Of a DNA stretch of 64,000 nucleotides, positions 28,400-31,055 are shown one piece after another. Position 1 is the stretch's first letter, and each line of letters opens with the position of its first letter. Made by a program: the position numbers and the translations under genes. The DNA lies in the NCBI GenBank assembly GCA_022843945.1, contig JALHMR010000005.1, forward strand, positions 137,716 through 201,715, read 5' to 3'. The notes below the pieces were generated by a model, which saw only the letters and a list, made by a program, of their open reading frames with translations, was not told the origin of the DNA and did no database searches. Source of the stretch: Rhodospirillaceae bacterium (lineage in GTDB: Bacteria; Pseudomonadota; Alphaproteobacteria; CACIAM-22H2).

Positions 28400-29287
28400 T
28401 TAAAGACCTCTCGGATAAAATAGGCGCCATTCCGAAGAGAACTTCCGCTTCTCGGGCTCGATTCCATATGCCAGATAAAAGTTATGCGCCAGCCCCAGGG
28501 AGCGCAGCTTCTCGTAATCGCTTGACGGGTAACCGGCGCGCTCCATCAAGAATCCAATAGATTGATGATAGGGGTAGGCGTGATCTAATTTTCTGAGGGT
28601 AGCAAGAACGTCTTCAACGGAGACGCGGCCTTTTGCGGCACTGTAGGCTTTGAGCACGCGAGATGGCCCGCCGGCATAGCCTGGACGTACAGTTATATCG
28701 ATGAGAGTGCGCTCGAGATCTGTCACTCGAACCGCTTCGGAGGATGGGCCTTCAATATCCTTCACCGCTGATCGATCGGTGTTCTTGCCTGAAATTATTA
28801 CGACGGAGATGCCGCTGCCCACATACACCATGTTGGATTGGCGTTGCTTGTTCGCGAACGCACGATTGATCGCGTCTTGAGTCAGCGAGGAACCGCCGGC
28901 CGGTTTCGCGCTTTGCTCGATGTTCAGGTAGAGGGTTCTGGGCGTGGGAGGTATCAGACCGTGAAGCATGAGAGCGGTCTCATGGCACAGATACCCTCGT
29001 GGTGCGATCGATTGGGCGAGTTCGAAAGGGGATGGCTTACCCCATGCGTATCGAGTCACGATCCGGGCGTAGTCGGCGACCCGAAGCACCTGCTTCTTGA
29101 GCTGTCCGTGTTTGGTCAGGAAGCCGATCAGATCGGGCAGCGTGGTACTCGGGGCAAGTCCCCAGGAGGGCCCGCGTTCATGCAGTAGGCGGCGGAGCTG
29201 GCTTTCGGAAAAAACCTTCTGCCCCGCCTGATCAAACGACCGGAAGATCAGATCTTTTGCGAGCTGGAGGCTACTGGGTCGCGCCAT
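28400..29287 (-). CDS. Hypothetical wHTH-type regulator, possibly AbiEi-antitoxin-like; orphan
   Basis: 295 aa; the segment VRVTDLERTLIDITVRP resembles AbiEi-family proteins. No AbiEii nucleotidyltransferase partner lies downstream. It is divergent from hipB2 across the large palindromes. Confidence 0.4.
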   Translation of the reverse strand: MARPSSLQLAKDLIFRSFDQAGQKVFSESQLRRLLHERGPSWGLAPSTTLPDLIGFLTKHGQLKKQVLRVADYARIVTRYAWGKPSPFELAQSIAPRGYLCHETALMLHGLIPPTPRTLYLNIEQSAKPAGGSSLTQDAINRAFANKQRQSNMVYVGSGISVVIISGKNTDRSAVKDIEGPSSEAVRVTDLERTLIDITVRPGYAGGPSRVLKAYSAAKGRVSVEDVLATLRKLDHAYPYHQSIGFLMERAGYPSSDYEKLRSLGLAHNFYLAYGIEPEKRKFSSEWRLFYPRGL

Positions 29288-29294
29288 CGATAGG

Positions 29295-29397
29295 CCTGCA
29301 CTGTAGGGTATATATACCCTACAGTGCAGGTACTTACTTAGCGGCTTCCAGCGAGCAGCTCGGGCTTCGGTAATGGTATATATACCATTACCGAAGC
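29295..29397. promoter_or_regulatory. Two long perfect palindromes (36 bp and 34 bp) sharing a GGTATATATACC core in the divergent intergenic region
   Basis: cctgcactgtagggtatatataccctacagtgcagg and gcttcggtaatggtatatataccattaccgaagc. Both are perfect inverted repeats about 35 bp apart, between the 28400-29287 (-) gene and hipB2 (+). Confidence 0.6.
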
Positions 29398-29479
29398 AGG
29401 GGTCCTTCGAAGCTCAGCTGTTGCGTTTTGGAAACTTCGTGTTACATTAAGTGCGCTTAATGGAAAACGAAGGTTCCAA

Positions 29480-29815
29480 ATGCCTACCCCCCATCGGCCC
29501 TCCCTCGCGGTACGCCGCACGCTGCGGAAGCTTGGCCGGGATCTACGCGACGCCCGCCGCCGTCGCCGACTCCCCGCCGAAGTCGTAGCGCAGCGAGCCT
29601 TCACCACCCGTCCGACGCTTCGGCGTATCGAGGCGGGCGACCACGGCGTCAGCATCGGCATCTACGCCGCCGCCCTGCATGCGCTGGGCCTGCTGGAAGG
29701 GCTGGGCCAGCTCGCGGATCCGTCCCGGGACAGCACGGGCCTGGCGCTGGCCTCTGAAAACTTGCCCCAACGCGCCCGTCTCCCGCGCGCAGGCACGGAT
29801 AACGATGCCCAATGA
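29480..29815 (+). CDS. HipB-like XRE-family HTH antitoxin (second module)
   Basis: LRKLGRDLRDARRRRRLPAEVVAQRAFTTRPTLRRIEAGD is an HTH_XRE motif. It overlaps the downstream hipA-like gene by 11 bp. Confidence 0.65.
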   Translation: MPTPHRPSLAVRRTLRKLGRDLRDARRRRRLPAEVVAQRAFTTRPTLRRIEAGDHGVSIGIYAAALHALGLLEGLGQLADPSRDSTGLALASENLPQRARLPRAGTDNDAQ

Positions 29816-31055
29816 CATCGAGGTCTTCATCGAGTTCTCCCCCGGCCTGAAACGTGTCGGCACCCTCCACCGATACCAACGCCAGGAGCGGGAGGCCGTC
29901 GGTTTCGAGTATCACCCGGCCTGGCTCGAGGAGCCGGAACAATTCTCCCTCGAGCCGGCGCTGACCCTGCATCGGGGCGCCTTTGTGCCGGCCGAGGGCC
30001 TGACCATCTTCGGCTCGATCGGCGATTCGGCACCCGACACATGGGGGCGAAGGCTCATGCAGCGGGCCGAGCGCCGGCGTGCCGAACGCGAAGGACGGAG
30101 GGTCAGGGCCCTGATGGAGGCGGACTACCTGCTGGGGGTATCCGATGTAGCCCGGCTGGGCGCGCTTCGCTTCCGGCGGGCCGGGGAGGAGCATTTCCAG
30201 GCGCAGGCAGACCAGGGTGTCCCGGGACTGATCGAGCTCCAGCGTCTGTTGGGAATCACCGAGCGGATCCTCAGGAACGAGGAGACGGACGAGGATATCC
30301 AGATGATCTTCGCGCCGGGCTCATCCCTCGGCGGATCCCGGCCCAAAGCCTCGGTGATCGATCGGGACGGGCATCTTGCTTTGGCGAAGTTCCCCAAAGA
30401 GAACGACGACTACAGCCTGGAGCTTTGGGAGGCCGTCGCGCTGCAACTGGCAGCTCGCGCCGGCATCAACACATCAGAGCATCGACTGATCGAAGCCGCC
30501 GGCAAGCCCGTCCTTCTCTCCCGACGCTTCGATCGGGCTCAAGGTACCCGAGTTCCCTTCCTCTCCGCCCTGTCCATGCTCGGCATGAAGGATGGGGACC
30601 GTGGCAGCTATCCCGACCTGGTCGATGTCTTGAGCCAGCACGGTGCGCAAGCGGCAGATGACGCCAGGGAGCTGTACCGTCGCATGGTCTTGAACGTTCT
30701 TATCTCGAACGTCGACGACCATTTGCGAAATCACGGCTTCCTATGGACGGGGCGCAAAGGATGGGCCCTCTCTCCGGTTTACGACCTGAACCCTGTTCCC
30801 ACTGACATCAAGTCCCGGATACTGACGACCAATATCAGCCCGGACGAAGGCACTTGCGATATGCGCCTCGTCTTGGACGCCGCAGAATATTTTTCCTTGG
30901 ACGGGGCTGCGGCAAAGGAAATCGTCAAAGAAGTCGCAGCCGCCACGGCAGAATGGCGAAACGTTGCAAGAAGTTTTAATGCGCCGCCTGCTGAAATCCG
31001 TCGCATGGAGAGCGCGTTCGAGCACGAGGATCTACAAAGAGCCTTGGCATTGTGA
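29805..31055 (+). CDS. HipA-like Ser/Thr kinase (second, divergent copy)
   Basis: FAPGSSLGGSRPKAS (P-loop-like/couple motif) and NVLISNVDDHLRNHGFL...SPVYDLNP (HipA_C catalytic motifs). Start trimmed to MPNDIEV; 416 aa. Confidence 0.8.
   Translation: MPNDIEVFIEFSPGLKRVGTLHRYQRQEREAVGFEYHPAWLEEPEQFSLEPALTLHRGAFVPAEGLTIFGSIGDSAPDTWGRRLMQRAERRRAEREGRRVRALMEADYLLGVSDVARLGALRFRRAGEEHFQAQADQGVPGLIELQRLLGITERILRNEETDEDIQMIFAPGSSLGGSRPKASVIDRDGHLALAKFPKENDDYSLELWEAVALQLAARAGINTSEHRLIEAAGKPVLLSRRFDRAQGTRVPFLSALSMLGMKDGDRGSYPDLVDVLSQHGAQAADDARELYRRMVLNVLISNVDDHLRNHGFLWTGRKGWALSPVYDLNPVPTDIKSRILTTNISPDEGTCDMRLVLDAAEYFSLDGAAAKEIVKEVAAATAEWRNVARSFNAPPAEIRRMESAFEHEDLQRALAL

Follow-up and report, generated by a model that had tools for sequence, protein, structure and literature searches.

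The locus considered here raises the question of whether two long perfect palindromes, placed between divergent genes, control the toxin–antitoxin (TA) module on one side, the gene on the other, or a single unit that comprises both. It lies in a 64-kb stretch of Rhodospirillaceae bacterium DNA (contig JALHMR010000005.1), hereafter called the window. An open reading frame (ORF) coding a 295-residue AbiEi-like protein occupies 28400-29287 on the minus strand. The proximal palindrome (29295-29330; 36 bp, perfect and spacer-free, with the centre GGTATATATACC) ends 7 nt before its ATG, and the distal one (29364-29397; 34 bp, also perfect and spacer-free) has the same GGTATATATACC core and unrelated arms; 68 bp separate the two centres. 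On the plus strand, hipB2 (29480-29815) codes a 111-residue HTH-XRE antitoxin/repressor and hipA2 (29805-31055) a 416-residue HipA-family Ser/Thr kinase toxin, the hipA2 start overlapping the hipB2 end by 11 bp. The initial annotation of this DNA had described all these features, which are found in place by direct inspection, and had interpreted them as a three-part unit with hipBA2 controlled from the palindromes. A third inverted repeat (arms 29427-29451 and 29456-29480; 25 nt each, 88% complementary, with a 4-nt spacer), whose final base is the A of the hipB2 ATG, was absent from that description. We favour, with some reserve, the interpretation that the region consists of two separable units placed back-to-back, one of which is a so far uncharacterised variant of AbiE whose putative operators covary, at the DNA level, in the manner of a paired structure.

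The 295-residue protein has the architecture of AbiEi, a winged helix-turn-helix (wHTH) at the amino terminus followed by the AbiEi carboxyl-terminal domain, as seen both by profile and by fold. The PADLOC AbiEi profile PDLC02267 matches it over nearly its full length (E = 4.6e-19). Its AlphaFold2 model, with a predicted local distance difference test score (pLDDT) of 92, retrieves Rv2827c of Mycobacterium tuberculosis (1ZEL, E = 2e-7) and AbiEi of Streptococcus agalactiae (6Y8Q, E = 4e-7) as top Foldseek matches in the PDB, both with a probability of 1.0. The AbiEi-like character proposed in the initial annotation thus stands. In Pfam the protein matches AbiEi_1 at E = 0.013 (16.2 bits, below the 22.2 cut-off), NCBIfam gives no match, and a search of PDB sequences with a profile of the family found no relative; the fold search alone succeeded there. 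There are 1046 homologues, nearly all of 292-300 residues and mostly of about 294, and about 50 residues are invariant across 25 diverse members. The ORF is not a fragment of a larger gene, as shown by the more than 1000 full-length relatives and the conserved residues. The ratio of nonsynonymous to synonymous substitution rates (dN/dS) is 0.154 between the gene of the window and its closest relative (locus L284, 86% protein identity), which indicates a gene under purifying selection and, by this measure, functional. Fold and one profile library identify the protein as a full-length AbiEi from a large unnamed subfamily beyond the curated libraries. The Foldseek matches that come next are the nucleotidyltransferases MenT1 (8RR5, 8AN5), JHP933 and ANT(2'')-Ia (probabilities 0.8-0.99), a hint from the model that the AbiEi carboxyl-terminal domain may be a degenerate nucleotidyltransferase-like fold.

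To which gene the palindromes belong is answered by their distribution. The family survey covered 80 genomic loci from many phyla (81 in the palindrome counts), and in 66 of the 81 the region upstream of the AbiEi-like start holds between one and three spacer-free, perfect palindromes, which measure 20-54 bp and most often 30 bp. Among the 133 perfect palindromes of at least 20 bp found in 734 kb, 123 are situated no more than 340 bp upstream of an AbiEi-like start, in 66 loci and many phyla; most of the remaining 10 are slightly further upstream and have the same centre. An unbiased count of the 10-mer core GTATATATAC gave 134 occurrences upstream of the AbiEi-like gene in the 81 loci and 1 elsewhere. 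Within the window, the 12-mer core shared by the palindromes occurs at two sites when up to one mismatch is allowed (0/100 shuffles), and the chance expectation for a perfect palindrome of at least 34 bp is about 4e-6 per 64 kb (64000 x 4^-17), which puts the observed pair far outside chance. The palindromes are assigned to the AbiEi-like gene because they accompany it whatever lies opposite; judged from these sequences, they appear to be its own cis elements and a hallmark of the whole subfamily. A search of the searchable literature for such elements or for their core motif returned unrelated papers only and no description of them.

The palindromes combine a conserved centre with arms that are free in sequence. 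Positions 1-5 from the centre carry 1.5-1.7 bits of information each and position 6 carries 0.7 bit, while beyond position 6 there is at most 0.3 bit, essentially no sequence information. Yet arm covariation is directly observed: 1016 of 1072 position pairs (95%) at positions 6-13 are Watson-Crick pairs, and at least 14 compensated double changes are found across seven orthologous pairs of closely related loci. The mismatches at positions 6-13 comprise 8 G.T and 12 A.C, with no RNA wobble bias on either strand. Pairing of the arms is 75% at position 15 and, one position further out, falls to 51%. In L284 the proximal palindrome is identical to that of the window (36/36 bp) and the distal one differs by two changes, of which one (C..G to A..T) is compensated and the other is not, whereas the spacer between the palindromes has diverged past alignment. 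Copies within one locus usually have in common 3-4 extra bases beside the core (positions 6-9) and differ in their outer arms. The predicted DNA hairpins of the window are stable (-18 kcal/mol, z -7.4, for the proximal palindrome; -15.6 kcal/mol, z -10.7, for the distal one). Core variants follow protein clades (GGTATA versus AGTATA; GGTGTATACACC in Paenibacillus), a pattern that fits protein-DNA co-evolution and equally shared ancestry. In the Burkholderia/Paraburkholderia loci L070 and L286 the centres are GC-rich (GCATGCATGC, GCGTTAACGC) and the arms are conserved between copies (TGCTAYGCRGC...), so that these palindromes resemble conventional operators, unlike those of the rest of the family. 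Spacings between palindromes (51-287 bp) show no clear period that would indicate helical phasing, and a -35 box conserved at constant spacing from the proximal palindrome gave no signal across phyla. An example of palindrome loss is provided by L050 and L053, whose genes are 96% identical: the palindrome is perfect in L053 and decayed in L050 by a cluster of changes confined to the arms, and the proximal palindrome of both is reduced to a core remnant.

The AbiEi-like gene of most family loci faces a convergent gene coding a protein of about 290-300 residues, the two 3' ends overlapping, typically by 24 bp. This partner is an AbiEii nucleotidyltransferase (DUF1814/AbiEii; Pfam E-values from 1e-19 to 1e-28), and a hidden Markov model (HMM) built on the partners detects a convergent AbiEii in about 59 of the 80 related loci (for example L044, 5853-6737; L286, 2656-3555; L285, 2658-3575). 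The RefSeq annotations of two small plasmids, of 12.4 kb from Burkholderia pseudomallei and of 9.1 kb from Bacillus subtilis, contain convergent AbiEii pairs with overlaps of 24 bp and 49 bp, respectively, in which the regulator is annotated as 'hypothetical protein'. Palindromes upstream of the convergent AbiEii genes were found in none of the related loci. As far as can be judged from gene order, the convergent, 3'-overlapping AbiEii appears to be a variant of the described bicistronic AbiE layout; a literature search on convergent AbiEii yielded nothing relevant. The initial annotation had pointed out that the 295-residue protein lacks an AbiEii-type toxin, which holds for the whole window: tblastn with 48 partner proteins and an HMM search detected no AbiEii-like sequence, intact or decayed, downstream of the gene or elsewhere in the 64 kb. 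The interval 28097-28430 was considered as a possible AbiEii remnant and rejected, both searches being blank. In a neighbour-joining tree the window protein falls within a clade where a convergent AbiEii is missing throughout, and this clade appears to have lost the toxin.

The module on the other side of the palindromes would be, as part of the two-unit interpretation, an ordinary autonomous type II module with an intact kinase toxin, and to this we give the same measured preference. HipA2 matches HipA_C (E = 8e-46) and, marginally, Couple_hipA (E = 5.5e-5; 24.0 bits against a cut-off of 22.5), aligns with its homologues from residue 1, and has a Gly-rich loop (GSSLGGxRPK), a catalytic loop (DDHxRN) and a YDL motif that are invariant among 5 homologues. 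HipB2 matches Pfam HTH_31 (E = 1.8e-8) and, weakly, NCBIfam couple_hipB; its homologues, 53-81% identical, sit upstream of the hipA2 homologues. The features of the HipBA class are thereby found together, namely the HipA_C core with catalytic motifs, the amino-terminal subdomain and the upstream overlapping HTH-XRE gene, and the initial assignment to the HipBA type is upheld. A split kinase of the HipBST type was rejected, HipA2 being full length. There are more than 588 relatives of hipA2 in metagenomes. Comparison was made with the 80 closest metagenomic homologues (47-76% identity), 67 of which have at least 400 bp upstream of hipB, and neither an AbiEi-like gene nor a TATATA-centred palindrome is present upstream of hipB in any of these 67, a direct observation of the autonomy of hipBA2 homologues. 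Stand-alone modules of the hipBA2 type carry instead, directly before hipB, a repeat homologous to 29427-29480 (consensus ..CTTCGTGYTACAT..GTAGCRCGAAG..), and the AbiEi-linked loci L049 and L072 have a homologous hipB-proximal repeat at the same position. Several of these repeats feature a TTGAC-type -35 and a TACATT or TACATA -10 in and just before the left arm; the repeat of the window has a -10-like TACATT in its left arm. Since stand-alone homologues keep this repeat without having the palindromes, it is likely the HipB2 operator, overlapping the hipBA2 promoter, and HipB2 would most likely repress its own promoter at this 54-bp inverted repeat. Control of hipBA2 from the palindromes, as initially proposed, is not borne out by these homologues.

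The palindromes themselves are most likely operators of the AbiEi-like protein, by analogy with the described members of the AbiE family. In the Paenibacillus loci and the B. subtilis plasmid, canonical -35 and -10 boxes were recognised (TTGATT, a 17-bp spacer and TATAAT on the plasmid), and there the left arm of the proximal palindrome contains the -10. The region of the -10 and the transcription start is thus covered by the palindrome, and the mRNA would hold only one arm. This position and the lack of any wobble bias speak for a DNA-level operator and against an RNA hairpin. The proximal palindrome of the window is a probable AbiEi-like operator that would overlap the promoter and 5' end of the gene, and the distal palindrome is probably a second one. 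The AbiEi-like protein would bind the palindromes and repress its own promoter, as is proposed from the analogy with AbiEi and Rv2827c; its wHTH domain probably reads the conserved centre and the 3-4 locus-specific bases on each side. The outer arms are free in sequence and nonetheless strictly self-complementary up to 15 bp from the centre, which suggests that intrastrand DNA pairing, in a cruciform or hairpin, may be part of the mechanism. Such pairing is inferred because a duplex operator explains neither arms that are uninformative yet complementary nor the sharp 15-bp limit. The leading idea for the pairing requirement is a cruciform whose (TA)4 centre would melt easily, and a role for the cruciform in palindrome function is put forward on this basis.

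Elements related to these palindromes are found outside the AbiEi-like family. When viral contigs were scanned with two 14-mer forms of the core, most matches were bare, and a second population consisted of perfect 28-34-bp palindromes: 5 of 120 occurrences of AGGTATATATACCT have half-lengths of 15-16 and 8 of 122 occurrences of TAGTATATATACTA half-lengths of 14-17. They are much commoner than the background would give, other perfect palindromes of 30 bp or more numbering about 1 per Mb of the same viral DNA. These phage palindromes (L177, 2684-2715; L189, 2504-2535; L241, 6128-6159; L257, 1285-1316; L263, 1760-1789; L391; L320; L294/L302) have GGTATATATACC or AGTATATATACT centres, are intergenic and lie in contigs of 33-65% GC; L294 and L302 have an identical 28-bp palindrome within different flanking sequences. 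Examples follow a major head gene and a terminase gene, or precede what in our own reading is a RusA-type gene, and a gene with a Shine-Dalgarno sequence often begins 12-49 nt downstream. A function as terminators was rejected, as they have no flanking T-runs. None of 240 viral loci has an AbiEi-like gene near a phage palindrome, which shows that elements of this class also occur outside AbiEi loci. A further related element is the conserved sequence of about 30 bp, TGTCC-N5-TTGTATACA-N5-GGACA, that DUF6088-AbiEii modules carry as their own beside the DUF6088 start (seen in the intergenic regions of L407, 3381-3500, and of L001, L006, L010, L012 and L408). Its GTATAC centre is like that of the AbiEi-like palindromes, and its N5 positions are not complementary. 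A literature search on DUF6088 found nothing relevant.

On balance, then, an autonomous hipBA2 and an orphan AbiEi with its own palindromes is the description that we prefer, and several points weigh against it. A cognate AbiEii could sit elsewhere in the source genome, beyond the window. A simple sigma-70 consensus scan gives no promoter in the intergenic region of the window, where the promoter positions are our own reading by analogy with homologues. A plain duplex operator leaves the complementarity of non-conserved arm positions unexplained, and the binding and repression ascribed to the AbiEi-like subfamily are putative. The orphans, moreover, adjoin complete TA modules far more often than the AbiEii-bearing members do. 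In the clade of the window they sit back-to-back with a complete two-gene TA module whose type alternates even between sister taxa (HipBA of at least 3 kinds, DUF6088-AbiEii, AbiEi_1-AbiEii and one unknown pair), and L047 and L075, which are independent orphans in other clades, show the same arrangement. Among the loci without a convergent AbiEii, 17 include upstream sequence, and 12 of these have a divergent HipBA or DUF6088-AbiEii, against 0 of the approximately 59 loci with a convergent AbiEii; all four further orphans also lie beside a TA module (DUF6088-AbiEii twice, HipBA once, AbiEi_1-AbiEii once). In our judgement this adjacency exceeds what island clustering alone would produce, with the limit that the loci are not phylogenetically independent, and it suggests that full independence of the two units may be an oversimplification. 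The region could accordingly be regarded as a coupled three-part unit in which the orphan AbiEi-like protein was recruited as an add-on regulator or sensor of the divergent TA operon and, bound to the palindromes, would modulate hipBA2 transcription directly or via local supercoiling, atop HipB2 autoregulation. The carboxyl-terminal domain of the orphan, which retains every family-invariant residue, would suit such a role, as would the distal palindrome, the end of which lies, in our reading, some 24 bp away from the putative -35 box of hipB2. Set against this are the absence of the regulator from all 67 hipA2 homologues, the conserved operator that each partner module carries of its own, the variable distance from palindrome to partner start codon (about 73-235 nt), counts that come mostly from one clade, and the clustering of TA modules in islands anyway. 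The repeated juxtaposition with TA modules leaves some plausibility to the three-part unit initially proposed, in spite of these separate operators, and coupling is to us a possible but distinctly less probable account.

The nature of the palindromes has likewise to be weighed. They could be ordinary duplex operators whose arm symmetry is a functionless mutational by-product, for instance of hairpin-templated template switching. Template-switch correction of quasi-palindromes is an established bacterial mutational process, known to keep them perfect; the Burkholderia clade, with its GC-rich centres and between-copy conserved arms, looks as normal operators do, and the bases at positions 6-9 that copies within a locus have in common with the core are what a protein site would show. 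This explanation is nevertheless unlikely: the sharp drop of pairing at 15 bp and the modal length of 30 bp indicate that a defined length is selected for, L284 has kept all 36 bp of the proximal palindrome unchanged beside a spacer that has diverged, and the non-conserved positions of the DUF6088 operator show no complementarity. Strong predicted hairpins that occur one to three in tandem upstream of a gene would also suit RNA structures, formed either by the divergent transcript or by an AbiEi-like mRNA with a long 5' leader. Such structures are very improbable here, given the lack of G.U-type tolerance (8 G.T and 12 A.C against 1016 Watson-Crick pairs), a recognisable -10 that leaves one transcribed arm, and the result of an Rfam search, in which the palindrome hairpins matched no family and gave only sub-threshold miRNA noise. 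Finally, the palindromic form alone would speak for repetitive extragenic palindromes (REP), bacterial interspersed mosaic elements (BIME) or other dispersed mobile elements, with the 295-codon ORF as a gene fragment. REP and BIME elements exist in many dispersed copies per genome, as a rule between convergent genes. This possibility, foreseen in the initial annotation, is refuted: both sites of the core in the window are at this locus, in about 744 kb of related loci the core is restricted to one position beside one gene family, about 430 kb of hipBA loci do not contain it, and the ORF is full-length and conserved.

A more far-reaching proposal, speculative and held here with little confidence, is that the subfamily binds DNA structure and not plain duplex. 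Its ligand would be TATATA-tipped hairpins of a fixed 15-bp length, the two arms of an extruded cruciform, and the upstream palindromes would form a switch responsive to supercoiling or infection. Phage palindromes with the same cores would act as a competing ligand, so that infection would titrate or relocate the regulator. In the clade of the window the AbiEii of this sensor cassette would have been lost and the cassette itself recruited beside other toxins, such as HipA2.

The surroundings of the two units complete the description of the locus. About 195 nt downstream of the AbiEi-like stop, a consensus scan called a terminator-like hairpin with a T-run (28185-28205, minus strand), which possibly marks the end of the AbiEi-like transcript; the evidence is weak, as the scan yields no more such hairpins than shuffles do. 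Next to it lies module 1, hipB1/hipA1 (26463-28096), confirmed by Pfam. HipA1 and HipA2 are 31% identical over 129 residues only, and the presence of two hipBA modules in one islet, initially singled out as notable, was judged unremarkable in itself. A perfect 22-bp palindrome, TATCTTCCCGATCGGGAAGATA, is found at 26527-26548, 8 nt ahead of an in-frame hipB1 ATG at 26556 (MENAAT...). It is probably the HipB1 operator, and the true HipB1 probably has about 81 residues, fewer than the 112-residue ORF with a GTG start at 26463. Downstream of hipA2, 31116-36077 holds further island-type genes: a T5orf172/MUG113-domain gene (32123-33289; PADLOC PDC-S57 match, 2e-6), ORFs at 31514-32113 and 33571-34245 (minus strand) without a family match, and a 582-residue ORF (34329-36077, minus strand) whose match, at 1e-3, is weak and DruB-like. 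The sole tRNA of the window is a tRNA-Ser (15109-15198, minus strand).

If the preferred interpretation is true, there is a widespread branch of AbiE organised unlike the textbook operon, with the toxin gene convergent and overlapping, that spans many phyla and is carried by chromosomal islands as well as by small B. subtilis and B. pseudomallei plasmids. A conserved centre with free arms on either side, strictly complementary and fixed in length, is what a base-paired nucleic-acid structure classically shows, here in promoter DNA, and would make these palindromes a natural and testable example of bacterial gene control through cruciform or hairpin DNA. The orphan clade, with its antitoxin-type regulators beside interchangeable toxin modules, bears on how TA and defence modules are wired together. 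Little is added to hipBA biology; the interest of the locus lies in the orphan AbiEi and its palindromes.

The module hipBA2 is nonetheless readily placed among known systems. It is like HipBA of Escherichia coli and Shewanella in having an upstream overlapping HTH-XRE hipB, the amino-terminal subdomain, an intact catalytic core and a candidate inverted-repeat operator at the promoter. The E. coli hipBA operator has the consensus TATCC-N8-GGATA, to which the candidate operator of hipBA2 is unrelated in sequence. HipA2 is distant from E. coli HipA, with no PDB match to the latter at E<=1e-3; its best PDB matches are HipT-like chains (1e-4), and NCBIfam gives a sub-threshold YjjJ match. It probably belongs to one of the several uncharacterised hipBA clades listed in PMC8262856, where a link to AbiE is not mentioned.

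The perfect inverted repeats, with an AT-rich centre at the -10 and start, are comparable to cruciform- or hairpin-dependent promoters, in which extrusion would depend on supercoiling. The early promoters of phage N4 are hairpin-dependent, and an engineered cruciform promoter was reportedly described by Horwitz and Loeb. These are single engineered or phage cases, and extrusion of the AbiEi-like palindromes is hypothetical. The orphan form can also be compared to BrxR/WYL-type regulators (PMC9122601), which are stand-alone HTH proteins that bind inverted repeats and whose genes lie beside many different defence or toxin modules. They are functional analogues only: their fold is unrelated to that of the orphan AbiEi, whose regulation of its neighbour is putative.

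The AbiE systems described so far, exemplified by that of S. agalactiae, are bicistronic operons coding AbiEi and AbiEii and act as type IV TA and abortive-infection systems (PMC3985639); AbiEi and Rv2827c bind inverted repeats that cover their own promoters (PMC3985639, PMC7319586). The subfamily of the window is like S. agalactiae AbiE in its two-domain antitoxin/regulator (wHTH and carboxyl-terminal domain) of the same fold (6Y8Q), in the DUF1814/AbiEii nucleotidyltransferase that is the partner across the family, and in the inverted repeats over the regulator's own promoter. It differs in falling below the Pfam AbiEi thresholds, with no sequence match in the PDB, and in a toxin gene that is convergent and 3'-overlapping rather than downstream in an operon, the copy in the window being toxinless. 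Its putative operators, too, are spacer-free perfect 30-bp palindromes with sequence-free covarying arms, unlike the 23-N3-23 repeats with conserved arms of S. agalactiae. The best structural match, over the full length, is provided by the M. tuberculosis pair Rv2827c-Rv2826c (1ZEL, PMC7319586), whose regulator is of similar size (293-295 residues) and also has several inverted repeats upstream of its gene. The two regulators are about 13% identical, and the M. tuberculosis genes are co-directional; the repeats IR1-IR4 share a consensus and have 13-bp gaps between them (PMC7319586), unlike the palindromes of the 295-residue protein's locus.

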